Assembly (NCBI GenBank): GCA_016195275.1
Contig: JACPZZ010000001.1
Coordinates: forward strand, 3,046-67,045
Source of the DNA: Candidatus Aenigmatarchaeota archaeon
Lineage (GTDB): Archaea; Aenigmatarchaeota; Aenigmatarchaeia; JACPZZ01
Direction of reading: 5' to 3'
DNA: 64,000 nucleotides
The position numbers were made by a program, and so were the translations under genes. The notes below the pieces were generated by a model. The model was not told the DNA's origin. It did no database searches and was given only the letters and a program-made list of their open reading frames with translations. This document shows positions 43,688 through 56,304 of the stretch, one piece after another (position 1 is the first letter of the stretch; every line of letters starts with the position of its first letter).

Positions 43688-44509
43688 TTATGGACTGGAT
43701 AACCGAGCAGCCATGTTATAACTATTTATTGGGTGTAAGAAACGGCGACTATAAATCTGCTGGCCTTTGATTCCAAGTTTTTCAATAACATCTTTTACAG
43801 TGTGTTCACCAAATCTTTGACTTTTATTTTTTGATACTGGTTTTTCGGCCTTCGTTTTCCCCGATTTGCCAGAATATATCTCCCATAATTCTTTATTCTT
43901 TTTGATCAAACTTTGTGCTTTCTCCGTTAAAGCTACGCCAAAATTTTCCACAGGTCGTACCAATTCTAGGCTTCTGCAGAGATAGTGATCTAATATCTGC
44001 GTTGGATCTCCAATCACAGTCTTCATAACTTTATCTGATTCGCCGAGCAAGATATCACACGTTCTTAAAAACTTGCTCATAAAAGCTGGCTGGTCTGGCG
44101 TGGAGGAGACGATTACAGCCGACAGAACTATTCCTAGCGAGTTTTCCAAGCCTTCCAGGCCAAAACTTCGGGAAAGCTCATCCCAATAGTTGTCAAGGAG
44201 AATTGATGCCATGTCCTGATTTGTTATTGTTGTCAGGTTATTTCTTAAAAGCTTGTCCTCTAACTTCTCTGTGAATATGGCCAACCTTTCATCCTTTATT
44301 TCGATTATCCCTGCGTTCTTCAAATGTTCCATGTCTCTGTTAAAGCTGGGGAACATTGCAGAAACTATGTCAACCGGAGCAGAACCTCCTGCCTTGAACA
44401 TGAACCACAGTACATCTGATAACTCATTGATTTTTGGCGATAATTTTAGAAATTCTTTTGAGAAGGTTTGCCTTGTCAGTTCGACTATATCTTCTTTTAC
44501 CACTCTCAT
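43688..44509 (-). CDS. unknown-function protein, paralog family member 3 (winged-helix-like N-terminus, basic tail)
   Basis: 273 aa. Shares ELTRQTFSKEFLKLSPKI...TPDQPAFMSKFLRT with 44534..45253. Confidence 0.6.
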   Translation of the reverse strand: MRVVKEDIVELTRQTFSKEFLKLSPKINELSDVLWFMFKAGGSAPVDIVSAMFPSFNRDMEHLKNAGIIEIKDERLAIFTEKLEDKLLRNNLTTITNQDMASILLDNYWDELSRSFGLEGLENSLGIVLSAVIVSSTPDQPAFMSKFLRTCDILLGESDKVMKTVIGDPTQILDHYLCRSLELVRPVENFGVALTEKAQSLIKKNKELWEIYSGKSGKTKAEKPVSKNKSQRFGEHTVKDVIEKLGIKGQQIYSRRFLHPINSYNMAARLSSP

Positions 44510-44533
44510 TACTTTTAATTCATCCTAAAGAAT

Positions 44534-45253
44534 TTATACGAATTCCATCTCTTCTTTTACTCTTATAGGCTCCTCGGTCTCAACGGGTTTTTCTTCCTTT
44601 TTCGCCACCGGCTTTATTTTGATATCTTTCTTTTTGCTGCTGTAGAGCTCTGATAGTTCATTGTCCATCTGTATTAACTGCTTAGCTTTTTCAGAAAGAG
44701 CCACTCCGACATTTCCAAAAGGCTCTACAAGGTCGAGAGGGAAAATATAGTTGTCCAAAACCAACCTCGGGTTGCCGAGCACGCCTTCCAGTTTCAACTC
44801 TCCAATAATGTTGGCAGAGGTTCGCAGTACTTTGCTCATAAAAGCTGGCTGGTCTGGCGTGGAGTTCGCGATTATTCCCGACAGTGTTGCCGATAGCGAA
44901 TTTACAAATTCCTCCATCCCAAAACTGTCCAGCAATTTGTCTAAATAGTTGTCTAATAGTATCGATGTAACATCAGATTCTGTTATATCCCTCAAATCTT
45001 TACTCAACAGTTTTTCCTCAAACTTTTCCTTGAGAACTACCAGGTCGCTATTCATTTCGATCAAGCCTGCTTTGATCATCCCCTGTGAATCTTCATTGAA
45101 ATTTGGAAATCTTACAGATATGGCATTCGTATGGGTGAAACCGCCTGTCTTAAAAACAAACCATAGGATTTCTGAAATTTCTCGTATTTTTGGCATCAAT
45201 CGAAGGAACTCTTTTGAGAAGGTTTGCCTTGTCAGTTCGACTATCCTTTCCAT
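44534..45253 (-). CDS. unknown-function protein, paralog family member 2 (Lys/Glu-rich tail)
   Basis: 239 aa. MERIVELTRQTFSKEFLRLMPKI...TPDQPAFMSKVLRT...KKKDIKIKPVAKKEEKPVETEEP. Confidence 0.6.
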   Translation of the reverse strand: MERIVELTRQTFSKEFLRLMPKIREISEILWFVFKTGGFTHTNAISVRFPNFNEDSQGMIKAGLIEMNSDLVVLKEKFEEKLLSKDLRDITESDVTSILLDNYLDKLLDSFGMEEFVNSLSATLSGIIANSTPDQPAFMSKVLRTSANIIGELKLEGVLGNPRLVLDNYIFPLDLVEPFGNVGVALSEKAKQLIQMDNELSELYSSKKKDIKIKPVAKKEEKPVETEEPIRVKEEMEFV

Positions 45254-45606
45254 GGTATTATTTTACCCATAAAAGTTAAATACCCATGTTTTGTAAGAAC
45301 CCTATAGGGTAGTATCACCAAATTACATAATTTGAGGGGTGGTGATACCAAGTGATAGTTAGTAACTCTGGGTTATTAAGGTTTGCTTCAAAGTGCTTTA
45401 GGCTGGTGCCAAAGGTGATGCCAGAATATTCTTCCAAAAAGGAATATAACCAAAGATAGAAGAGCGAGGCTGCCACTTCATCTGTAAAGAGGAAATATGG
45501 TGATAATGTAAGTTCAGGGGGATGAGGCTCACGGCTTTTGTTTACATGTGGACAGAGATTCAAGGGGTTTTATTGTAGGATTTATACAGAGCAAATACCT
45601 ATCGAT

Positions 45607-46374
45607 TCAAACCCACGGAAAGTACTGCCTTAACTTTCTCAACCTCCCTTCCTCTTCTTTACTGTAATATTTTATCACAGGTTTTTCTGTCGGTTTTTCA
45701 ACAGGCTTTTCTTCTTTCTCAACCGCTTCTGGCTTATATTCTTCTTGATAAGCCTTAAAAACTTCTTCGTCGTTGCTAATCCTTTTCACAGCTTTTTCGG
45801 AGAGGTTTATCATAATTCCATCTTCTATTTTTATAAGGCCCAGAAATCTATTCAGATAATAATTAAGAATTTCCTTGCATTCAATAGGCGGGGCATTCCA
45901 TGTCCTGGTGGACTCCCTGTATATACGCCCAACAAACGCAGGCTTTTCGGGAGTTGCGTATCTGATGATTAAGGATAGCACGGTTGTTATGAAATCCGTT
46001 AATTTGTTTCTGCAAAATCCTATTAGCTTTTGTCCGGCATACCCGAATGTCAGCTCAGCAAACATATCTTTTGTCAACGGCTCTTTGTCTATGATAAAAT
46101 TTGCAAACTGTTTATCCAAAGATAAAAAAACGTTTGTGTCTTTATTTTTGCCAAGTGTCCCGAGCGCATGCCACACAATCAGCTTCATTTCAGAAAGAAA
46201 CATGATTTTATTTTCAATGGCCTCATCGACTTCAAGCTGGAATGTTACAAATTTCATAGGCACGACAGCTCCAATCTTGTGCAACGCCCACAGTATATCT
46301 ATATAACCCAATGCTCTGGGCGAAAGCTTGAGAAGATCTTCGGCAAATACAGCTTCAACCCTTCTAAGTTCCAT
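45607..46374 (-). CDS. unknown-function protein, divergent paralog family member 1 (Glu/Lys/Pro-rich tail)
   Basis: 255 aa. LLKLSPRALGYIDILWAL...ATPEKPAFVGRIYRES...EEYKPEAVEKEEKPVEKPTEKP. It starts 34 nt downstream of the MinD/ParA gene. Confidence 0.6.
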   Translation of the reverse strand: MELRRVEAVFAEDLLKLSPRALGYIDILWALHKIGAVVPMKFVTFQLEVDEAIENKIMFLSEMKLIVWHALGTLGKNKDTNVFLSLDKQFANFIIDKEPLTKDMFAELTFGYAGQKLIGFCRNKLTDFITTVLSLIIRYATPEKPAFVGRIYRESTRTWNAPPIECKEILNYYLNRFLGLIKIEDGIMINLSEKAVKRISNDEEVFKAYQEEYKPEAVEKEEKPVEKPTEKPVIKYYSKEEEGRLRKLRQYFPWV

Positions 46375-46408
46375 ATATGGATATTAATTTCGAAGATTAA
46401 AATGATTA

Positions 46409-47266
46409 TTACGCGCCTCTCCCCAATTTTTTAAAGTATCCTAAAAACCTTTTTATCAAGCCCGGCTTTTCTTTGGGTTCTATGGCAGGCTCTCTGAACG
46501 ACTCACCAAATCTCCCAACGCCTTTATCTTTTTCCGGTTTTTCTCCAACCAGACTTGCGGCGAGTTGTATATATGCTTGGCTTGCCCTGGAACCAGGATT
46601 TGATAATATTACCGGGGTTTTTGAGTTCACGCTCTGTAGAATACTTTCATCCTCCGGAATAGACCCAATTATAGGTAAGGCTGTTAATCTTTCTACTTCA
46701 CTTTCTGATAGCTCATAATCCTTTCCTTTTACTCTGTTCATTAAAACACCAATGGGTTCGATATCGGCAACACCGTCCTGGGTCAGCTTAATGGAGAGGT
46801 TCACGATTTTTGCAACGTCAACCGCCGAAGGTATGAAAGGATTCGCAATAAAAAGCACTTTATCACATGCCTTCAAAGCCATCAAAGCCTCTCTATCAAT
46901 ACCAGGCGCAGAGTCAAGCAATACGATGTCAAACATTTCCGACAAATTCTTTATAGTTTTTGTAAAAAGTTCATGGTCTATTCCTTGTAGATCCTGTATA
47001 TTCAAAGAAGCTGGTATTATCCGAAGACCGGAAGGATGGATGTACAATGCTCCAGCCAACGATGCCCTGTTCTGCAAAACTGAATTTAGTGTTATTGGTG
47101 TAATGTAAATTCCAAGATATAAACCAATATGGGCCGTGGTAAGATTACAGTCCACCAGGGCAACTTTTTTATTAAAGTGCTCTGTTAGGGCTAATCCAAG
47201 GTTTATAGCAGTCGTCGTTTTCCCAGCCCCGCCTTTTCCGCTAACTATACCGATAATCCTACCCAA
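46409..47266 (-). CDS. MinD/ParA-family deviant Walker A ATPase with a C-terminal amphipathic helix
   Basis: GIVSGKGGAGKTTTAINLG (deviant Walker A) and IVLLDSAPG (Walker B). The C-terminus PGLIKRFLGYFKKLGRG resembles a MinD membrane-targeting sequence. Confidence 0.85.
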   Translation of the reverse strand: MGRIIGIVSGKGGAGKTTTAINLGLALTEHFNKKVALVDCNLTTAHIGLYLGIYITPITLNSVLQNRASLAGALYIHPSGLRIIPASLNIQDLQGIDHELFTKTIKNLSEMFDIVLLDSAPGIDREALMALKACDKVLFIANPFIPSAVDVAKIVNLSIKLTQDGVADIEPIGVLMNRVKGKDYELSESEVERLTALPIIGSIPEDESILQSVNSKTPVILSNPGSRASQAYIQLAASLVGEKPEKDKGVGRFGESFREPAIEPKEKPGLIKRFLGYFKKLGRGA

Positions 47267-47320
47267 AGCATCACACCACTGATTTTAGATTGATCCTGAG
47301 CTTTAAATGGTTTTTGTATT

Positions 47321-47644
47321 TTAATTTTCCTTGTTGGATGGTTTTTGAGGCGGCGCGATAGAAACTAGTGGCTGAGAATCTGCTTTTAGCGCATCGTTGT
47401 TTTGATTTTTCCCCTTTCTTTCAATTTCTTCTGAATAATGCTTTCGCACGTTTTCATCCCAAGCTTCCATTAAGCCATAACCAAGCATTGTTGCCATGCC
47501 TGCAATTGCGGCCCTTAAATTAATGCCGATCAATGGGATGCCTGAAAGGGTGATCACAACATCTGCGTTAATAACAACCCCTGTATCCAGAATAGCATTC
47601 AGAAGGTCCACCAGTTTGTAATTCAAGTCTCTTTTCGGTTCCAT
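47321..47644 (-). CDS. gvpM: gas vesicle protein, GvpA-family minor component (GvpJ/GvpM-like)
   Basis: LVDLLNAILDTGVVINADVVITLSGIPLIGINLRAAIAGMATM is the GvpA/J/M core. I cannot separate J from M by eye. Confidence 0.75.
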   Translation of the reverse strand: MEPKRDLNYKLVDLLNAILDTGVVINADVVITLSGIPLIGINLRAAIAGMATMLGYGLMEAWDENVRKHYSEEIERKGKNQNNDALKADSQPLVSIAPPQKPSNKEN

Positions 47645-47648
47645 TCAA

Positions 47649-48461
47649 TCAACCCACAAAATGGAAGGGGGGCCAGGGCCCAGAAAATCGAACAGATAGT
47701 CCATGTATTTTATTGGTCTCTTCCAAGAACTTGCCTAAGGCTTCGATTTTGCTATTATGCACGAGACAGGATAGATTTAGAATCATCTCTTTGTCTTTCC
47801 ATTTTCCATCTTCTATATTAATTGTTTTTTCGGCTTTCATTTCTTCCGCAGAGTCTTTAACCTGATCACAAATTTTTTTAGAATATTCTTTATAATATTC
47901 CTCCACCTTCCTCCTTGTTTCATTGATAACTATCAGCTCAAGTTTTTTCTGAAGAACGTAAGCAATGCCCTTGGGCTTCGTTTCAATGTCCATTTTTAAC
48001 CTTTGAATTTCCTCGTTGGTGCTTTCAATTTCTTGGCTAGTGGAACCAGTATCCATGAAAATTTGAATATCGTATTCTGCTTTTCCGTCTAATCTTTCTA
48101 AACTGTTTTTAAGCTTGTGATACTCCGCGCTTAACCATTTCCTTACGTCATCCTCGGTTCCTTTGATTATAGTGTCAAAGGCAAACGGAACGACAGCGCC
48201 GAATTTTTTTGCTGCTGCGTCAATCGTATACAGATGCGAAAAAAGCCACGATTTCACCTCTTCCTCTTTGTTTGATTTGTATGGTTTAGCCAAGCATTTG
48301 TGGACTATGACGCCTATGTCCTTATATAGTATGGCATACACCCTATTATTCCCTATTCCTATGTTCCCAAAACCGGTTTCTGCGCCGCAATTGGTTACAC
48401 AATAGAGATATACGCCTTCGCCAACACTCTCTTCACATTTAACATCATTCACTTTTTTCAC
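47649..48461 (-). CDS. gvpL: gas vesicle protein GvpL/GvpF family
   Basis: GVYLYCVTN...FGNIGIGNNRVYAILYKDIGVIVH...FSGPWPPFHFV. Confidence 0.8.
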   Translation of the reverse strand: MKKVNDVKCEESVGEGVYLYCVTNCGAETGFGNIGIGNNRVYAILYKDIGVIVHKCLAKPYKSNKEEEVKSWLFSHLYTIDAAAKKFGAVVPFAFDTIIKGTEDDVRKWLSAEYHKLKNSLERLDGKAEYDIQIFMDTGSTSQEIESTNEEIQRLKMDIETKPKGIAYVLQKKLELIVINETRRKVEEYYKEYSKKICDQVKDSAEEMKAEKTINIEDGKWKDKEMILNLSCLVHNSKIEALGKFLEETNKIHGLSVRFSGPWPPFHFVG

Positions 48462-48762
48462 CCTGTGGTTCCAAATACACCAACTTCAGAAACATGTTGC
48501 TCAAGGTTTCTCTTAATTTTTCCCTGTTTTTAAAATGATTTTCCCCTTCAACCTTCATCTCTATGCCATTGTCAGAATTTGTAACTACAATCACCGGGAA
48601 TCTTTTGATGGAATGCTTCTTTATGTACCTTACAAAATCCATTTCCCTGGCCCCTATCTTGTCCACATGAATTTTGCTTTCTTCGTGGAGTTCATCGAGA
48701 ATGCCCTCTGCCAATTGCGTATCTTTATCTTTTATGCTGTATATCAACCTTGTAATTATCAT
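48445..48762 (-). CDS. hypothetical protein within the gvp operon
   Basis: 105-aa ORF whose stop overlaps the gvpL start. No known Gvp family recognised. Confidence 0.5.
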   Translation of the reverse strand: MIITRLIYSIKDKDTQLAEGILDELHEESKIHVDKIGAREMDFVRYIKKHSIKRFPVIVVTNSDNGIEMKVEGENHFKNREKLRETLSNMFLKLVYLEPQGEKSE

Positions 48763-48766
48763 GCCG

Positions 48767-49297
48767 TTACCTTTTCTTCATTTTTACAGACAAAAAACCT
48801 TTCTCTTCACCTTTCCTGTATTCTATTTCTACATCTTTGACATAGCATTTTAATGGAACTTCTTTACGATATTTTCCATCTTTTGTTTCTATGATAAGCT
48901 TTTTACCTATAGGGTAGACTTTTAAATCGCTTTCTTCTACAGGCGGGGTTTCCTCCCACACAACTATAGTCTTAATGTCCTCTTCTTTCTTAGGAATTTC
49001 TCCTGTTACCAGCGTTCTTACAGAATAAGAATATTCTATACGCGGTTTGCCTGACCATCCTTTCTCCAGCCTAGACTTTATCTCTTTATCGGTTTCTTCA
49101 ACCCTTTTCTGGAGTTCTGGGGACGCTTTGATTAACTTGCTTACAAATTTTCCTAACCCGGGGATAAAGTTGCCCACGAGTTCCTCTACCGAAGAGATTT
49201 CAGGCTTCTTTTCCTTCTCTTTTTCAAGTTTTTCTGTTTTCTTTTCAAGTTCCTCTATCCTTTCCTTGTCTTTTTTCTTTTTTTTCATTCGCTTCAC
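48767..49297 (-). CDS. GvpH-like / Hsp20-like protein with a Lys/Glu-rich N-terminus
   Basis: 176 aa. The C-terminal ...LIIETKDGKYRKEVPLKCYVKDVEIEYRKGEEKGFLSVKMKK resembles the alpha-crystallin beta7-beta9 pattern. Size and position fit GvpH. Confidence 0.45.
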   Translation of the reverse strand: MKRMKKKKKDKERIEELEKKTEKLEKEKEKKPEISSVEELVGNFIPGLGKFVSKLIKASPELQKRVEETDKEIKSRLEKGWSGKPRIEYSYSVRTLVTGEIPKKEEDIKTIVVWEETPPVEESDLKVYPIGKKLIIETKDGKYRKEVPLKCYVKDVEIEYRKGEEKGFLSVKMKKR

Positions 49298-49300
49298 TCT

Positions 49301-49615
49301 TCATTCGTATGCGGCTACTTTCCCCTCGTTTTGAATGTCCATCTCTCCTATAGCGCTGTTCACTATTTTGTCAAGATCGCCGTTAATGGAATTAACTGTG
49401 TCCTCGAGGTCATTTTCTTTTTTGATATGCCTGATGGTATCATCTAAATCTATCAGGGCATTGCCTAATTTTTCAACTTCTTCTCCGGTCAACCTGCCCA
49501 ACTCCATCCTTCTTATTGCCTGATGCTCTAATGCGTCTTTGATTATCTCAACAAGTGTAATTACTAAACCAAGCAATCCCTTTTTGAGGTTATCCTCATC
49601 GATTTTGACAGTCAT
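49301..49615 (-). CDS. gvpK: gas vesicle protein GvpK
   Basis: LKKGLLGLVITLVEIIKDALEHQAIRRMELGRLTGEEVEKLGNAL. I placed the start at the ATG that forms an ATGA overlap with the upstream stop. The track start at 49651 is the alternative. Confidence 0.8.
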   Translation of the reverse strand: MTVKIDEDNLKKGLLGLVITLVEIIKDALEHQAIRRMELGRLTGEEVEKLGNALIDLDDTIRHIKKENDLEDTVNSINGDLDKIVNSAIGEMDIQNEGKVAAYE

Positions 49616-49947
49616 GCCATCACAGCAACCCTTTTCTTGCATTTTGGGCAACCATGTCCTTCAAAAAACCTTTTTCCTATCAATTCTCCACACGTGGGGC
49701 AATACGTCAAGTCTCCTTGTTCTCTCAGCGCTTTCCATCCTGGAGCATCATAATTAACTCCTGAAGGAAATTCCAGGCCGTACTTTGCTGCTGTTGCGAG
49801 CGAAGCCAGGGTTGCCCTTATTTTTATTCCCAGCAGTTCGGTGCCAGCAACTGATACAACAATGTCCGCGTTTATGACTATGCCTTTGTCTAAAAGTTTA
49901 ATTAACGCTTCAGGAAGCGTCATGACTTCTCTATTATGTGTTATCAT
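49612..49947 (-). CDS. gvpJ: GvpJ-like (GvpA-family) protein fused to a C-terminal CxxC...CxxC zinc ribbon
   Basis: LPEALIKLLDKGIVINADIVVSVAGTELLGIKIRATLASLATAAKYG is the GvpA/J core. The C-terminus is ...YCPTCGELIGKRFFEGHGCPKCKKR. Confidence 0.75.
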   Translation of the reverse strand: MITHNREVMTLPEALIKLLDKGIVINADIVVSVAGTELLGIKIRATLASLATAAKYGLEFPSGVNYDAPGWKALREQGDLTYCPTCGELIGKRFFEGHGCPKCKKRVAVMA

Positions 49948-50324
49948 AGCGCTTTTCCCTCATTTCTATTTGAGGTGGCGGATTTTAACCTCATTCCGTA
50001 CAATCTTTTTTTTGGTTGTATATCAGAATATCTGGGCCTTGCAGGGATTGTTGAAAATTTGCATCCCAACCTGTCTCCTCTTTTTTCAGGTTGTGATGAA
50101 AACGCTGAAGGGTTTAAGTTTTTTGGCCTGCCCGCTTTCTTCATAACCATTAATCGTTTATTGAGATTCACTTTTCTAGCGTATCGAATACTGTTCTGGA
50201 TTAGACTTGACCTCGCCCTGTCCCTCCACATCTGCATTTTCTTTTTCGTTTTTGCTATTATATTTTTTCTGCGCACGCCTGTCCTCATAATTTTGCCAAC
50301 GGAGAAATTTCCTATAGGTCCCAT
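49944..50324 (-). CDS. highly basic hypothetical protein in the gvp operon (possible GvpI analog)
   Basis: 126 aa, very Lys/Arg-rich. It fills the gap between gvpG and gvpJ exactly, with overlapping start and stop codons on both sides. Confidence 0.4.
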   Translation of the reverse strand: MGPIGNFSVGKIMRTGVRRKNIIAKTKKKMQMWRDRARSSLIQNSIRYARKVNLNKRLMVMKKAGRPKNLNPSAFSSQPEKRGDRLGCKFSTIPARPRYSDIQPKKRLYGMRLKSATSNRNEGKAL

Positions 50325-50614
50325 TATGCAACGCCTCCTAATATGTCCATCCTCTGGTCTAATTTCATCTCCCTTGCTTTTACACCCAGTTCCAGCTTCT
50401 CTCTCAAATCAGCATCAATTATTTTGTAATCTTCTTCAGTCCTTTCTCCAATTTCAAAAAGCAATCTGTTTTCTTTTATCATATCTTTGATTTTCGGAGG
50501 ATCATACGCTTCCTTATAGGCAAAATCCCGTATGAGTTTGAATAAAGCAATAGTGTCGAAGGGCAGTATGGAAATGCCAAGAAGCCTTAAAACAATATCA
50601 TCTATGATGAACAC
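50324..50614 (-). CDS. gvpG: gas vesicle protein GvpG
   Basis: MFIIDDIVLRLLGISILPFDTIALFKLIRDFAYKEAYDP...FEIGERTEEDYKIIDADLREKL matches the GvpG pattern. Confidence 0.7.
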   Translation of the reverse strand: MFIIDDIVLRLLGISILPFDTIALFKLIRDFAYKEAYDPPKIKDMIKENRLLFEIGERTEEDYKIIDADLREKLELGVKAREMKLDQRMDILGGVA

Positions 50615-51277
50615 CTACTCGCCTCCTCCTATTTTTATTTTTACAAAATTGTATGGTGGCCAAGGTCCGGTATACTGAATCTTTGGAGCGAGCATTTTTT
50701 CCACCTCATCCACTTCTTTGGAAAATTCCTTAATTTTATTTTTTTCAACCAAGAATGACGCATTCAGGAGCAGCCTCTCGCTAAATAGTTTGGCGTTAAC
50801 AGACTCTACGGCTTTTTTCTTAAGCGACTCAAAAATATACGAAGCGAACTGGATTTTCTTTTCTCCAAGCAATTCCATAAGTTCTTTGCCCAAGACGATC
50901 TTAATTCCGAGCTCAACTTTGTTGTCTAATAATGCCAAAGATTTTTTAATCGCATCATAGCTTTTCTCTAGCACCGAAAGCAGGACTTCTTTATCTTTAA
51001 ATGCCATGCCAAACGCCATCGGTATCACCGTATGTTCTTTCATAACCAGAGTGGCAACTTCATTGTGCGCTTTTATGTTTTCTTCGGTTGATTGATAATC
51101 TGTCAGGGGCGTGTCGCTTACAACAGCGGATATTCCTTTATAAGGAATGGTATAGACTTCGCTGAAATTTCCAATTCCCTTGTTGCCAAAACTTGCTGGT
51201 TTCTCGGTGTTGGCAATTATGCAGTAAACATATTTTCTTTCTTCTATTACGGGATCTTTTCCTGTTTTCTTACTCAT
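50615..51277 (-). CDS. gvpF: gas vesicle protein GvpF
   Basis: KYVYCIIAN...FGNKGIGNFSEVYTIPYKGISAVVSD...YTGPWPPYNFV. Confidence 0.85.
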   Translation of the reverse strand: MSKKTGKDPVIEERKYVYCIIANTEKPASFGNKGIGNFSEVYTIPYKGISAVVSDTPLTDYQSTEENIKAHNEVATLVMKEHTVIPMAFGMAFKDKEVLLSVLEKSYDAIKKSLALLDNKVELGIKIVLGKELMELLGEKKIQFASYIFESLKKKAVESVNAKLFSERLLLNASFLVEKNKIKEFSKEVDEVEKMLAPKIQYTGPWPPYNFVKIKIGGGE

Positions 51278-52121
51278 AGTTAATCATCTGTTTTTTATTT
51301 CTATAATCTGACAACAAGAATTTGGTCAGAATGCCGCTGATCTTGATATGTTCCTCAAGGCTATCTTTTACTTCATGCAAAGAAATATCAACAAGTTTGT
51401 AGATCTTCTTTTTTACAACATACTCATATTGTATCATGCCCTTCTTTTCCAAAGTATGAAGGAGTGGGTATATCGTGCCTGGGCTGAGAAATACGTTGAA
51501 GTTTTTATGCACCGCCTTTATCATATCCGTACCACACATGGGCTTATTCATTAGCAAAGCAAAGATTATCATTTTCAAATCGTTTTTCACATACCGCTCT
51601 ATGGAATCATCTTTGATAACCTTGTCAATAGACTCGGACGATAAAATTGAAATATCGCCTGACGTGAGTATTAGCTTGTCATGATGTGCCACTAAATCCT
51701 TGATAATGGCTGGGTCTATCTTTGTAACATCATATACGCATGATATTGAAGAATTCTTTTGGAATCCCTCTGTCAGGCACTTTTCGTATTTGGCGTGGTC
51801 TTCTTTAGCGATTGAGGCAGCGTCAAAAATTATCTTCAGCTTTCTTTTGCCAGGTTTTAGCGTGCTTAATTTTTCCGGTCTTAATATGGATATATTTGCT
51901 CCCAGTCCATTAAATTTTTTCATTCCGCTGTCAGGGTCGTCATTGGTTACATAGATCACTTTTTCATTTTTTTCTGTTGTAGCCAAAAGTGATGCTTGAA
52001 GCGCACCTTTGTCAATATCCGGGGTATAAAAAACTAAGCCGTGCTTAAAATTGCCCATATCAGATAAAATTGATTTTACATCCAATTTTCCCGAGTTCAT
52101 ACTATTTACCCCTCTCATCAA
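51270..52121 (-). CDS. putative gvp regulator: N-terminal KaiC/RecA-like domain without an obvious P-loop, plus a C-terminal PadR-type winged helix
   Basis: The C-terminus IIFALLMNKPMCGTDMIKAVHKNFNVFLSPGTIYPLLHTLEKKGMIQYEY is a PadR signature. Paralog of 54895..55896. Confidence 0.6.
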   Translation of the reverse strand: MMRGVNSMNSGKLDVKSILSDMGNFKHGLVFYTPDIDKGALQASLLATTEKNEKVIYVTNDDPDSGMKKFNGLGANISILRPEKLSTLKPGKRKLKIIFDAASIAKEDHAKYEKCLTEGFQKNSSISCVYDVTKIDPAIIKDLVAHHDKLILTSGDISILSSESIDKVIKDDSIERYVKNDLKMIIFALLMNKPMCGTDMIKAVHKNFNVFLSPGTIYPLLHTLEKKGMIQYEYVVKKKIYKLVDISLHEVKDSLEEHIKISGILTKFLLSDYRNKKQMINYE

Positions 52122-52404
52122 TCAAGTCTGACCTGCGTCTTACCATTATTTGCCTGTAGTTCAAAAGTTTACCGCCAGGGCTGAACTCCAATTCATACCT
52201 ACCGAGAAGATCCTGAGTGTCCGGAACAGCCTTTCTTTCCAATGTTTCTATCACAGCTTTCCATCCCTGGTCATCTTTGACAACACTCACAATTTGTTCT
52301 ACCGGCTTGTTTACCAAATCTTTCAATGCAGAAAGCCCCAATTTACCTATCTCCACCGGACTCTTTTTCTCCTGTATTATCTCACGGGATGTAGATTTTT
52401 TCAT
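52102..52404 (-). CDS. gvpO: gas vesicle protein GvpO
   Basis: VEQIVSVVKDDQGWKAVIETLERKAVPDTQDLLGRYELEFSPGGKLLNYRQIMVRRRSD matches the GvpO pattern. Confidence 0.75.
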   Translation of the reverse strand: MKKSTSREIIQEKKSPVEIGKLGLSALKDLVNKPVEQIVSVVKDDQGWKAVIETLERKAVPDTQDLLGRYELEFSPGGKLLNYRQIMVRRRSDLIDERGK

Positions 52405-52747
52405 TTACGATCTCCACCGGCTTGCCGATCCAAGTTTTTATCCCCGCTACTATATCATAACCTTCTAATTTTTCTGCTAATTTGTAGTATTTAACAAATC
52501 TGTAAAGCCTTTGGAGGGTCGACTTGCCACGACCTAGAGGTATGACATCAACCGTGTGATCAGGTTTAATACAAGTATAAAAAGTTTCCTTTACCGATTC
52601 CCCGTCCTTTTTTGCTGTCACAACAATAATTTCTGTGTCGTGAAAACCAACCGGTGCCGGCTTCCTAGGAAGGCTGCTTATCCTTACAATTTTTACGTTG
52701 CTTATTACTCCCCGGTCTTTTTTCAAGTTTTTCTCTTTTTGAACCAT
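52382..52747 (-). CDS. unknown protein in the gvp operon, short paralog
   Basis: 121 aa. Shares a domain of about 110 aa with the C-terminus of 52749..53459 (VKIV.I....RKP.....D..II......G...K.TFY..I.P...........K.......F..YYKLA..LE.YD...). Confidence 0.6.
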   Translation of the reverse strand: MVQKEKNLKKDRGVISNVKIVRISSLPRKPAPVGFHDTEIIVVTAKKDGESVKETFYTCIKPDHTVDVIPLGRGKSTLQRLYRFVKYYKLAEKLEGYDIVAGIKTWIGKPVEIVNEKIYIP

Positions 52748-52748
52748 A

Positions 52749-53459
52749 TCAAATTACCTCCGGGATTACAATTTTACCAGAGCTGTCTATTTTAACCGTT
52801 TTTCCCTTCCACCCCTTGGATTCCTCAATAACATCGTATTCTTCCAAGTTATCCGCCAGCTTGTAATACCGAAGGAAATTGATGAATTTTTGCTGGGTAG
52901 GAGTCTTCGCACGGCCATATTTTATACCGAGCATCCCGCCCGGCTCAATATAAGCGTAAAATGTTTTTTTCTCTTTTTTCCCTTCGGGAGTTTTTATTGT
53001 TATGATTATCGCGTCAGATTCTGAACTAAAAGCCGCGGGTTTTTTCCTCCACATATCCCTGATCTTTACAATTTTCACATCCTCTATCACGGGTTTTCTT
53101 AATCCGGCTTTGAATTTTTCCTTCTTCGGCTCTTGTAATTTCGGTTTTTCTTTCGGCTTGGACGGCTTTCTCACAACCTCCTCCTTTTCAACTCTGGTTT
53201 CTGGTTTTTCCGGCTCTTTAATCAGTCCTTCCGGAATTTCTATTATGGGTTGCGTGGGAATTTCTCTATGTTTTTCTAGTTCTAAAACCACAGTTTCTTT
53301 AATCTCTGCAGCAGCTTTAGGTTCCTCTATCCAAACCTCTTCTTTTCCCTCTACGTCAACTTTGCTAATCTCCTCTTTTTCTTTGATTTGATCCCTGAGG
53401 AGCTCAATCTCTTCCTCTTTTAATCTTTGCTTAGATGTTTCAGATGCCTGCCAAGTCAC
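52749..53459 (-). CDS. unknown protein in the gvp operon, long paralog with a Glu/Lys-rich N-terminal region
   Basis: 236 aa. About 120 aa of low-complexity E/K/P-rich sequence precede the shared C-terminal domain. Confidence 0.6.
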   Translation of the reverse strand: MTWQASETSKQRLKEEEIELLRDQIKEKEEISKVDVEGKEEVWIEEPKAAAEIKETVVLELEKHREIPTQPIIEIPEGLIKEPEKPETRVEKEEVVRKPSKPKEKPKLQEPKKEKFKAGLRKPVIEDVKIVKIRDMWRKKPAAFSSESDAIIITIKTPEGKKEKKTFYAYIEPGGMLGIKYGRAKTPTQQKFINFLRYYKLADNLEEYDVIEESKGWKGKTVKIDSSGKIVIPEVI

Positions 53460-54526
53460 TAAATCACACTTTTTATAATTTCTAATTTTTTTGAAAGATC
53501 AGCCGTCCCCTTTGTCTTGGTAACAATTATATCGGTAAGGATTTGCTCTAAATTCTCTGAACCGGATTCTTTAACCGCTTGTCCAACCATGATGGCGGCC
53601 CTTGTGCCCGGCCTTTCCGCTTCTGGTAATTTTGCCCTTAATGTCCTGACTGCTTTCACAATTTCCTTGGCTAATTTTGTTGATACTTCAGAGCGGACCT
53701 CAACGATTTTAACCTCGGTATCAAAGTCGTAGAAATCCATATACACCCCTATCATTCTATCCAATAAAGCGTCTTGAGGTCTGTGCACGCCGGCATATTC
53801 AACAGGATTGCTTGTGAATATTGCCCTAAAATCAGGGTGGACTTTTACGTATCTTTCTTTCCCGAAATGGGTGGGAAGTTCCAATATGCCTTCTTGAAAA
53901 ACAGAAAGCAAAACATTGTTTGCTACCGGCAAACTCCTGGAAAATTCATTGTAAACTAAAGTGAAGCCAAACTTGCAAGCTATCGTAAGAGGGTTGTCAA
54001 CCCAATCAGCGCTCAGTGTGTCGTGGGATTTGAAAACATTATGGATATATTTGTCCCTCAAACTTTCAACTTCTACTTGAGAATAACCTCCGATCAGGTC
54101 TGTAGTTGTCATCTGTCCGTCCCCATTTATCCATACTGTGGACCTGCCCAGCTCTTTTGCCACTTGCATTGCTATCGTTGTTTTTCCACACCCCGTGGGA
54201 CCAATTATGTGGACAGGATGCCCGATCTTGAGCCATATTTTTATCCTTTTTTTTAATTGCTTAATTTCGGGTGTTTCCACAAAGTTTTTAATTTGAGGAA
54301 CAAGGTAAGCAGGATTTTCTTTAATAGGTAGACCTTCGACCCCTATTTCATCCGTGGGGGCCAGCGGTCTGATGTAAGATGAAGTTTCCTTAGCCCTTAA
54401 TTGATTAAGACGATGAGGCCTCAGGCCCATGATCTTTTTAAATTGCCTTTCTTTCCTTTTCGTTTGTATATCTTTGTGAACTTGCTCACCAATAACTTTT
54501 CGAGGATGATCAGACGGTTTTTCCAT
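53459..54526 (-). CDS. gvpN: gas vesicle protein GvpN (AAA+ ATPase, MoxR/CbbQ-like)
   Basis: HPVHIIGPTGCGKTTIAMQVAKELG (Walker A), LVYNEFSRS (Walker B), 355 aa. Confidence 0.9.
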   Translation of the reverse strand: MEKPSDHPRKVIGEQVHKDIQTKRKERQFKKIMGLRPHRLNQLRAKETSSYIRPLAPTDEIGVEGLPIKENPAYLVPQIKNFVETPEIKQLKKRIKIWLKIGHPVHIIGPTGCGKTTIAMQVAKELGRSTVWINGDGQMTTTDLIGGYSQVEVESLRDKYIHNVFKSHDTLSADWVDNPLTIACKFGFTLVYNEFSRSLPVANNVLLSVFQEGILELPTHFGKERYVKVHPDFRAIFTSNPVEYAGVHRPQDALLDRMIGVYMDFYDFDTEVKIVEVRSEVSTKLAKEIVKAVRTLRAKLPEAERPGTRAAIMVGQAVKESGSENLEQILTDIIVTKTKGTADLSKKLEIIKSVI

Positions 54527-54649
54527 TACATTACCTTTTTTATGATCGTTATTAGGATAGATAAGGTTTTTGTTTTGATTATTGTATCGAATTTCGATTT
54601 TAAAAATGAAAAATAAGCTTAAATATAGCCAAATTTAATTAATTAAATA

Positions 54650-54700
54650 GATTAATTAGATTAAGCTGGTTAACTAAGTTGAATTAACTGGATTAATTAG
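54650..54700. promoter_or_regulatory. four copies of a G(A/G)TTAA(T/C)TAAG-like motif in the divergent gvp intergenic region
   Basis: GATTAATTAG (54650..54659), GGTTAACTAAG (54668..54678), GAATTAACTG (54681..54690), GATTAATTAG (54691..54700). Confidence 0.4.
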
Positions 54701-54709
54701 CGTGATGAG

Positions 54710-54892
54710 ATGTTTAAATTAGAACGGAAGACGTCTATAGAAAAGCAAATGGCATGCGACATTTGTGAAAAAGCCACAGGCAAAGGCAGCCCGATGAATG
54801 TTTTCAGGTCGCCTCTTGCCTATACACATATTATCAACGTCTGTGACAACTGTATCCCCAATTTTCCCAAATCATTTATTAAGAAGGGTTAA
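54710..54892 (+). CDS. small zinc-ribbon protein, hypothetical
   Basis: 60 aa with CDICEK...CDNC, directly upstream of the PadR-like regulator. Confidence 0.35.
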   Translation: MFKLERKTSIEKQMACDICEKATGKGSPMNVFRSPLAYTHIINVCDNCIPNFPKSFIKKG

Positions 54893-54894
54893 AC

Positions 54895-55896
54895 ATGATG
54901 AGAGAAAAAATGTCAATTCCGGCGGACGGGAGTATAATAATTTCAAATAAATTGGGCTGGGGCGACCGCTTGCTTTTATTATACGGGGATAATGTAGATC
55001 CCTGTCCTGTCTTCCAATCTTTTGTAAATAACGGGTTAGCTGATGGGAATCTCTGCCTGTACGCTTTTGACGCTACTAGTAATAAATTATTCTTGGGGGA
55101 GGGGGGAGAAGGTCCCAATCTTCGTGCAGTCCCTTTGAGAAAACATGGCCCGGATTTATTAGAAAAATTTTATAACAATCTTAGAACGATAACTACTCGT
55201 ATCAATGCTGGAGAGCATAATGGGCTAAGGATATTGATAGATTTTGGTAAAATAATCAATAGTTCCAATTCAACAGATATCATAGATTGTGAAAGAGAAA
55301 TTTTAAGAAAAACCAAACAATCTTCGCGTATGATGAAAAAATCTTGGTCCAAACTAGGTTTCAAGCGTTATAAAAACGCATTTAAAGAGAAATTTCCAAT
55401 CATCGCACTCACAGCGTATAACATCACATCTATTGATAATGAAAGCATTGAAACTTTAATAGGCCTGCATGATAAAATTGTGGTTTCTGAACAAAATAAA
55501 TTTATCGCACTTTTGCCAAATTTTACTGGCAATCGAGAGATAAGCGTGAAAAATTCTTTAGACATTATTTCAAAAGAAGCTGTAGAAGAGTTTGTTAAAA
55601 AGAATCTTGAGAGCATAATATTGGCGATGTTGTATGGAAAAGCAATGTGTGGTTATGATATGATTAAAATAATCTCCATGCGTTACCATACCTTTGTAAC
55701 CCAGGGAACTGTTTACTCTATCCTATATTCCCTTGAGAAAGGGGGAATTTTAAAAAAAGAGACCATGCCTGATAATAAAACAAAGGTATTTATTTTGACT
55801 GAAAATGGAAGAAATGTTGCCAAAAATAAGCTAACGGAGTTCACCAAGATTTTAGAGTACACGTTTTCCATTTTAAAATTGAACAATCAATTTTAA
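54895..55896 (+). CDS. putative gvp regulator, paralog of 51270..52121 (degenerate KaiC/RecA-like N-domain plus a PadR-type winged helix)
   Basis: C-terminus ILAMLYGKAMCGYDMIKIISMRYHTFVTQGTVYSILYSLEKGGILKKE. N-terminus GDRLLLLYGDNVDPCPVFQSFVNNGLADGNLCLYAF. Confidence 0.6.
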   Translation: MMREKMSIPADGSIIISNKLGWGDRLLLLYGDNVDPCPVFQSFVNNGLADGNLCLYAFDATSNKLFLGEGGEGPNLRAVPLRKHGPDLLEKFYNNLRTITTRINAGEHNGLRILIDFGKIINSSNSTDIIDCEREILRKTKQSSRMMKKSWSKLGFKRYKNAFKEKFPIIALTAYNITSIDNESIETLIGLHDKIVVSEQNKFIALLPNFTGNREISVKNSLDIISKEAVEEFVKKNLESIILAMLYGKAMCGYDMIKIISMRYHTFVTQGTVYSILYSLEKGGILKKETMPDNKTKVFILTENGRNVAKNKLTEFTKILEYTFSILKLNNQF

Positions 55897-56076
55897 AAAA
55901 GTTTTTTTCTCGTGTCGAAACTGGATACAGATCACGATATTCTTTTTAGATGATCTTTTGATATGTAATTTAAAAGATAATGCTTAAAACAGCCCATTTC
56001 TATATTCTGATTAAAGTGTTAGAGACGAGAAAAGGCGAGTCTCTGATAATATATAAAATTGATAGGAGGGCTATAA

Positions 56077-56304
56077 GTGGCAACACCAACTGGGCCAAAC
56101 GTTTCAAGTTTGGCTGAAGTATTGGACAGAATTTTGGATAAGGGAGTAGTAGTAGATGCATGGGTAAGAGTGAATCTAGTCGGCATAGAGATACTATCCA
56201 TAGAGGCTAGAATTGTGGTAGCGTCGGTGGACACATTCTTGCATTATGCAGAAGAAATGACCAAGATAGAACAGGCGGCATTGGCAGTTCCTGTTCCTGC
56301 CTAA
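56077..56304 (+). CDS. gvpA: major gas vesicle structural protein GvpA
   Basis: GTG start 8 nt after [59 protein letters not shown] is the canonical GvpA sequence. Confidence 0.95.

Follow-up and report, generated by a model that had tools for sequence, protein, structure and literature searches.

The gas-vesicle cluster and the gvpJ-Zn gene

The window, meaning the whole stretch of 64 000 nucleotides analysed here, comes from an Aenigmatarchaeota (DPANN) archaeon of groundwater having a genome of about 1.1 Mb, and it carries a complete gas-vesicle (gvp) cluster. This assignment of the host agrees with its aEF-1alpha, which has 87% identity to proteins bearing the name of that phylum. Read on the minus strand and in the order of transcription, the cluster starts with gvpN, two unknown ORFs, gvpO, a gene for a PadR-type regulator and gvpF, continues with gvpG, a basic 126-aa ORF, the gene studied here (gvpJ-Zn), gvpK, an Hsp20-like ORF and a 105-aa ORF, and ends with gvpL, a GvpM-like gene and then a MinD-like gene, with gvpA being divergent at about 56.1 kb in the window. 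This gene order is the haloarchaeal F-G-H-I-J-K-L-M order, the position of gvpH excepted, and the gvp cluster of the closest relative was found to be syntenic with that of the window. A search for RNA-seq evidence returned no run. The features referred to in the following are listed here, with their positions in the window.

43688-56300: the whole gvp island.
49612..49947, minus strand: gvpJ-Zn, a complete ORF of 111 aa, with ATG at 49947-49945 and TGA at 49614-49612.
49804..49911, minus strand: GvpA-family core, residues 13-48, comprising the end of alpha1, beta1 and beta2, as assigned with Pfam.
49759..49818, minus strand: alpha2 and the GvpJ/M signature, residues 44-63, RATLASLATAAKYGLEFPSG, with counterparts of the RAAIA and EYGL motifs.
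49702..49758, minus strand: linker, residues 64-82, with N65 and W71 conserved and a helix predicted at 69-78.
49639..49701, minus strand: four-Cys ribbon, residues 83-103, CPTCGELIGKRFFEGHGCPKC, as assigned by alignment, an AF2 model of the ribbon alone and Foldseek.
49615..49638, minus strand: short basic tail, residues 104-111 (KKRVAVMA), as assigned by alignment and charge counts.
49944..49947, minus strand: ATGA overlap 5' of gvpJ-Zn, joining the stop codon of the basic 126-aa ORF to the gvpJ start.
49612..49615, minus strand: ATGA overlap 3' of gvpJ-Zn, joining the gvpJ stop codon to the probable ATG of gvpK (Met13 of the listed TTG ORF).
49301..49615, minus strand: gvpK, directly downstream (PF05121, 76 bits).
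49944..50324, minus strand: the basic 126-aa ORF, directly upstream in a GvpI-like position and coupled to gvpJ by the ATGA overlap.

Residues 13-48 of the encoded protein matched the Pfam family Gas_vesicle (PF00741) with E=1.3e-12 and 48.1 bits, to be compared with a gathering score of 25, and a family profile matched the GvpA shells 8gbs (2.6e-14) and 7r1c (5e-13), in this case within the core only (residues ~7-60). A full-length AF2 model, having a mean pLDDT of 71, showed the alpha-beta-beta-alpha core that was expected, with its elements predicted at H11-20, E23-34 and E37-49. The protein also carries RATLA (residues 44-48) and KYGL (residues 55-58), which are motifs of the RAAIA and EYGL types; according to Jost et al. 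(PMC8716928), these two motifs are found in GvpJ and GvpM and are absent from GvpA. In an alignment of 55 sequences, the invariant residues of this signature block were A45, S49, T52, A53, A54, G57, P61 and G63, and the AAKYGLEFPSG block containing KYGL was near-invariant among the 55 relatives. When ranking the NCBIfam models, halo_gas_GvpJ came out best at 86.4 bits, followed by GvpM at 44.1 and GvpA at 36.6, with the best score being below a cut-off of 125 in a narrow, haloarchaea-specific model of the 'exception' type. By its sequence, and by its position behind gvpG and the GvpI-like ORF and ahead of gvpK, the gene at 49612..49947 is an orthologue of GvpJ, a minor GvpA-like shell protein.

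The protein contains four cysteines in total, i.e. C83, C86, C100 and C103, arranged as CPTC-x13-CPKC. An earlier note on this DNA had described it as a GvpJ-type protein of the GvpA family with a C-terminal four-Cys ribbon, and this description was borne out by Pfam, by the motifs and by the presence of the Cys motif in each of the 120 best homologues. Its four-Cys motif was likewise correct but its spacing was not, as the spacer between 'CPTCG' and 'CPKCK' is 12 residues and it is from C86 to C100 that 13 residues are found.

Two further ORFs of the island deserve mention. The basic 126-aa ORF ahead of gvpJ-Zn gave no family match; its slot is that of the haloarchaeal gvpI, and it was kept ahead of gvpJ at the loci L084, L085, L040 and L055. 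A 60-aa ORF on the plus strand (54710-54892) has another four-Cys pattern, CDIC-x25-CDNC, and lies between gvpN and a divergent gene for a PadR-type regulator (54895-55896), 3 nt upstream of the latter. It had no match in Pfam and may encode a small Zn-binding partner of that regulator.

Conservation, distribution and origin of the fusion

Searching 5.8 billion proteins, we obtained 968 relatives of similar length, and in the best 120 of these, in which the motif was checked, C-x2-C-x13(14)-C-x2-C was present at the same alignment position without exception, which far exceeds chance. The 55-sequence alignment had C83, P84, C86, C100 and C103 invariant, with W71, G99 and W105 being conserved to at least 90%. 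Scanning prokaryotic genomes, one for each species, gave 409 stretches encoding a GvpJ relative, from which 80 loci were fetched, and together with 2 loci from the closest relative these formed a set of 82. All 82 had the ribbon on the GvpJ gene within a full gvp cluster, with the usual slot being after gvpF/gvpG and before (gvpH)/gvpK/gvpL/gvpM. Against a 68%-identical relative, dN/dS came to about 0.15 in the core and about 0.32 in the tail as a whole, with a value of about 0.2 in the ribbon and with dS near saturation, and the tail of gvpJ-Zn is under purifying selection. The earlier note had allowed for homologs that end before the ribbon or that lack its cysteines; neither was seen, as the ribbon was reached in all that were examined and the four Cys were invariant, and the fusion is conserved both in the 120 best homologues and at the 82 loci.

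An artefactual origin of the C-terminal part, through a frameshift, an assembly error or a run-on into gvpK, could be suggested by the 40 nt over which the listed TTG-start gvpK ORF overlaps gvpJ, but it is so improbable that it can be set aside, because invariant Cys, synteny, dN/dS and read support make this a genuine fusion: every homologue and locus keeps it, gvpJ and gvpK are separate genes in unchanged order in the closest relative, selection acts on the tail, 98% of the sampled words of the stretch were present in two independent groundwater metagenome runs, and with the ATG at 49615 the overlap is reduced to a classical ATGA. This ATG is likely the true start of gvpK, as judged from the sequences, because the GvpK Pfam domain begins at residue 15 of the TTG ORF, two residues past the ATG, and because the GvpK of the closest relative has 106 aa with its start just past gvpJ.

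Ribbon-bearing GvpJ was found in archaea (Methanothrix, Methanoperedens, Methanoregula, Hadarchaeota, Bathyarchaeia and Micrarchaeota) as well as in bacteria (Dehalococcoidia, Bacillota, Desulfobacterota, Bacteroidota, Ignavibacteriota, Thermotogota, Nitrospirota, Planctomycetota, Zixibacteria and Atribacterota), with its carriers being mostly anaerobes. Using tblastn on plasmids, the same fusion was found in Streptomyces sp. SGAir0924, Natronococcus occultus SP4 and Natrinema zhouii. Because aerobic Streptomyces and haloarchaea carry the fusion, ribbon-GvpJ is not anaerobe-specific, and the idea of an anaerobe-only distribution, and with it that of an oxygen-sensitive site, was weakened. Such fusions were unfamiliar to the author of the earlier note, but they are not rare: of the 409 species genomes having a GvpJ relative, at least 80 carry one, and these belong to many phyla of archaea and bacteria. 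Databases name these proteins generically as 'gas vesicle protein', with some JGI entries being labelled Zn-ribbon.

Two of the plasmids, from Streptomyces sp. SGAir0924 (L086, 5974-8567) and from Natronococcus occultus SP4 (plasmid 2; L087, 5959-8526), hold short cassettes of ribbon-GvpJ, a second GvpJ/M-like gene, gvpK and gvpL/F. No gvpA, gvpN or gvpO was annotated within 6 kb of these cassettes, which look like orphan 'J-K-L-M' modules in aerobes. Tandem pairs of ribbon-GvpJ, with one copy of ~107-114 aa and the other of ~128-143 aa, were seen at L030, L050, L068 and L073 (Bathyarchaeia and a genome labelled Micrarchaeota), and their short copies formed a separate, very divergent clade of the tree.

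In a tree of 89 ribbon-bearing GvpJ proteins, phyla were freely mixed, and the window protein was placed together with one close relative on a long branch within an archaeal group that included Hadarchaeota, Methanotrichaceae and Methanoperedens. Among 301 sampled genomes of Aenigmatarchaeota, GvpJ was found in the window's own genome only, with one further genome giving a weak match to the GvpA-family core only, and four genomes of the same genus gave no match. Clusters of gvp genes are rare in this phylum. Because of this rarity, and because of the placement of GvpJ in the tree, the gvp cluster of the window was probably acquired horizontally.

The four-Cys ribbon and its other carriers

Two CxxC knuckles with invariant Cys are present in gvpJ-Zn, and the full-length AF2 model placed a helix (69-78) after the core and then, at the knuckles, two short strands with a further helix, with a ribbon pLDDT of 76-79. 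When the ribbon was modelled alone, using 78 tails, its core reached pLDDT 88-91 and comprised a pair of short strands together with one helix. The top matches of this ribbon model in the PDB, as found using Foldseek, were all Cys4 Zn modules, at E ~0.5 and TM 0.5-0.6 with none of them significant; the nearest folds were the N-terminal Zn domain of AccD, PolD DP2, L32/L33-type ribosomal proteins, HVO_2753 and RNA polymerase I ribbons. A search of the PDB with the full-length model gave no informative match. No zinc-ribbon model of Pfam or NCBIfam reached its cut-off (C1_1 at 16.3 bits vs 26.5; RpoP at 17 vs 63), and the ribbon families seen below cut-off in the relatives were DZR, Zn_ribbon_3, HypA and Cys_rich_CPCC. 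Because the profile matches were sub-threshold and the fold matches non-significant, we use the name zinc-ribbon-like for what is, from sequence and models, most likely a Cys4 module having its four Cys chelating one Zn(II).

Two further candidates were considered as relatives or models of the ribbon. By profile, the tail of gvpJ-Zn matched ribosomal eL43 weakly (E=0.0095, profile positions 56-109); homology between them was set aside, with this match probably being due to chance together with generic ribbon similarity. PF28085 was rejected as a model of the GvpJ ribbon, as it matched only 2 of 120 relatives. The ribbon of archaeal and eukaryotic eL43 has an 'AGRYGARYG' stretch ahead of it that resembles the AAKYGLEFPSG of GvpJ.

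The scaffold of the ribbon is fixed, consisting of the Cys, P84, G99, one or two hydrophobic positions and a G-W, with surface residues between the knuckles varying widely. The clade of the window protein departs from the family in several respects. A 2-residue insertion in the linker is specific to this clade, and the G-W after the last Cys, conserved to at least 90% in the family, is absent from it. The net charge of the ribbon in 120 family members had a median of -1 and a mode of -2, i.e. acidic, whereas in the window clade the ribbon is +1 and the tail +3, i.e. basic. Because the G-W has been lost and the ribbon is basic instead of acidic, the partner or role of the ribbon in this clade may differ from the family norm.

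A profile of the ribbon alone, run against 1.84 billion representatives, gave 192 matches at E<=1e-3. Among the best 149 of these 192, which were inspected, we found GvpJ-type and long GvpA-family proteins with a C-terminal ribbon, the long ones probably being of GvpM type as far as their sequences tell, as well as many small one- or two-ribbon proteins and Hsp20/GvpH-like fusions. GvpJ was the only carrier of the ribbon at 71 of the 80 loci and in the window; the other 9 had one more gene with a ribbon, which was a gene for a long GvpM, an ORF with two ribbons placed directly behind gvpJ, or a GvpH-like gene. The protein that bears the module throughout is therefore GvpJ. An obligatory ribbon-ribbon pairing with GvpM or with free ribbon proteins, considered as a general rule, was rejected, because a single carrier at 71 of 80 loci is at odds with pairing as a general mechanism.

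Some of the other carriers had the module in a different setting. In P0303, P0317 and P0323 a CPxC...CPxCGW ribbon was located at the N-terminus of small Hsp20/alpha-crystallin-like (GvpH-like) proteins, and a recurrent family of ~90-120 aa ('VLDVIY...VASFSG...') had the same ribbon at its C-terminus.

Proposed role and comparison with known proteins

Nucleation is the main open question of the gas-vesicle field, and GvpJ is a prime candidate for the seeding or capping of vesicles (PMC9994262, PMC11445434). GvpJ, GvpM and GvpS are the proposed nucleators (PMC9994262), and the contact between GvpA and GvpL of B. megaterium needs GvpJ, GvpK and GvpS, which are proposed to be seeding factors (PMC11445434). 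Our overall reading, resting on analogy with such systems and in our judgement reasonably probable, is that the window gene encodes a GvpJ orthologue that acts as a seed or cap protein and bears, on the side of the cytoplasm, a knob for docking that is stabilised by a metal.

GvpJ is proposed to act as the seed of the vesicle and to be located in the first bicone or cap. We assume, by analogy with GvpA, that the hydrophobic beta-hairpin faces the gas and that alpha2 and all that comes after it face the cytoplasm, in which case the ribbon would be a knob on the cytoplasmic face. It would form a mini-domain of ~25 residues, with its four Cys most likely holding one Zn(II), standing out rigidly from the outer face. 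The soluble seeding factors GvpL, GvpK, GvpG and GvpH-like proteins would dock on it and so be recruited by GvpJ, and/or neighbouring GvpA, GvpJ or GvpM subunits would be in contact with it, and the ribbon could then be seen as a folded equivalent, and replacement, of the essential C-terminal tail with which the GvpJ of haloarchaea binds its partners. What the data show is the gene with its family, its conserved fusion under purifying selection, its slot in the cluster and its wide distribution, whereas the binding of a metal by the ribbon, its outward orientation and its docking role are what we infer. The earlier note had suggested that the ribbon is exposed, either on the vesicle surface or at a nucleation point, which is plausible by analogy with what is known of GvpA and GvpJ (PMC9994262, PMC11445434). 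The occurrence of the ribbon on both soluble and shell proteins would fit a shared interaction module.

Taken further, and here we are tentative, finding it possible but rather doubtful, the CPxCG...GCPxCGW ribbon might be a metal-dependent docking code dedicated to gas vesicles, shared by Gvps and free ribbons that together build a nucleation complex seeding the bicone. In this lineage of clusters GvpJ would always be a carrier of this code, and in some clusters the code would also be found on long GvpM, on chaperones of the GvpH-like kind and on free proteins with one or two ribbons. If this were true, the step in the making of gas vesicles that is least understood could be approached through the ribbon, as a defined element open to mutation and tagging.

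The other roles that we considered differ in how well they agree with the data. The ribbon could be mainly steric or structural, with no specific partner, its knob barring GvpJ from the GvpA ribs, confining it to the cap or seed and setting the geometry of the first bicone. Such a role would suit a module found on GvpJ alone at 71 of 80 loci, with variable surface residues on a fixed scaffold, and GvpJ and GvpS remain in urea-washed bicones, as proposed tip components (PMC11445434). We hold it to be unlikely, however, as a purely steric role leaves unexplained that the module recurs on soluble proteins outside the shell (free ribbons and Hsp20-like fusions), and as the GvpJ of haloarchaea works with an unstructured, partner-binding tail.

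A metal or redox switch is also conceivable, in which the Cys4 site (Zn or Fe, rubredoxin-like) would make nucleation respond to oxygen, to the redox state or to the supply of metal. Knuckles of the CPxCG type are common to rubredoxins, and most carriers are strict anaerobes of sediments and groundwater, but the spacing of the knuckles in rubredoxins is much longer than the 13 residues of the ribbon, ribbon-GvpJ is also borne by Streptomyces, which is aerobic, and by the haloarchaea Natronococcus and Natrinema, and the clusters have no consistently present gene for a redox partner. Taken together, we find a redox switch quite improbable.

Binding of nucleic acid, either its own mRNA or DNA, which would couple the synthesis or localisation of GvpJ to translation or to the nucleoid, is very improbable in our view. 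The nearest neighbours in sequence and fold are ribbons of ribosomal proteins and polymerases, and the charges of +1 and +3 in the window clade would agree with it; nevertheless, the module is borne by a very hydrophobic shell-type protein, and as most family members have a ribbon with a net acidic charge, the nucleic-acid contact that the earlier note had put forward is unlikely as a general role.

A conserved and probably metal-bound tail on GvpJ would be of use in several ways. The ribbon offers an interaction surface that is testable, and in engineered acoustic-reporter clusters it would be a natural site for mutagenesis or tagging. It could possibly also account for the failure of some mined clusters in heterologous hosts, either through metal loading or through oxidation of the Cys in aerobic hosts. 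The window furthermore provides a record of a complete gvp cluster from a tiny archaeon of the DPANN group, in which clusters of this kind are very rare.

The closest comparison is with the p-vac GvpJ of Halobacterium salinarum, which like gvpJ-Zn has the alpha-beta-beta-alpha core with motifs of the RAAIA and EYGL types, is ~60-63% identical to it over residues 11-67, where the tblastn alignment ends at 67, and is likewise encoded before gvpK in an operon of the F-G-(H)-I-J-K-L-M type. The two proteins differ in what follows. Halobacterium GvpJ has no cysteine and its last ~41-50 residues form an acidic, cluster-specific and apparently unstructured tail, whereas gvpJ-Zn has a conserved linker and the Cys4 ribbon. 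In the work of Jost et al. (PMC8716928), the C-terminal part of Halobacterium GvpJ is essential, with a deletion of 5 aa giving a Vac- phenotype, its fragment 47-114 binds GvpG, GvpH and GvpL, and only the N-terminal part of GvpJ is described as conserved between archaea and bacteria. Judged by its sequences, the ribbon family contradicts this N-terminal-only conservation for a large set of clusters. Earlier work on GvpJ used proteins with unconserved tails, and the C-terminal region therefore looked cluster-specific and uninformative; across a large and phylogenetically wide set of clusters, sequences and models instead point to a strongly conserved, folded and probably metal-bound tail. In the literature that we searched, no description of a GvpJ-ribbon fusion was found, the zinc motif encountered there being chiefly the zinc finger of GvpC, and the ribbon-bearing GvpJ is a real and conserved form of a known protein that is apparently undescribed.

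The shell protein GvpA (8GBS from Anabaena and 7R1C from Bacillus megaterium) has a core homologous to that of gvpJ-Zn, but it ends soon after alpha2, builds the bulk lattice and is without the YGLEFPSG motif and the ribbon. The beta-hairpin of GvpA faces the gas space and GvpC binds to the outside of the vesicle (PMC9994262, PMC11445434). Haloarchaeal GvpC, likewise a gas-vesicle protein, has a reported Zn-finger motif at its C-terminus, on the outer surface (PMC9501494). Unlike gvpJ-Zn, it is an alpha-helical repeat protein outside the GvpA family that stiffens the mature shell, and the two motifs are unrelated.

With the small Cys4 ribbons of RpoP/Rpb12, eL43/L37ae, the N-terminal Zn domain of AccD and HVO_2753, finally, its best though non-significant neighbours, the GvpJ ribbon has in common two CxxC knuckles with ~13 residues between them and, as predicted, short beta strands around a small hydrophobic core, and it differs from all of these in its own signature, W-x11-CPxCG-x5-LL-x2-GCPxCGW.
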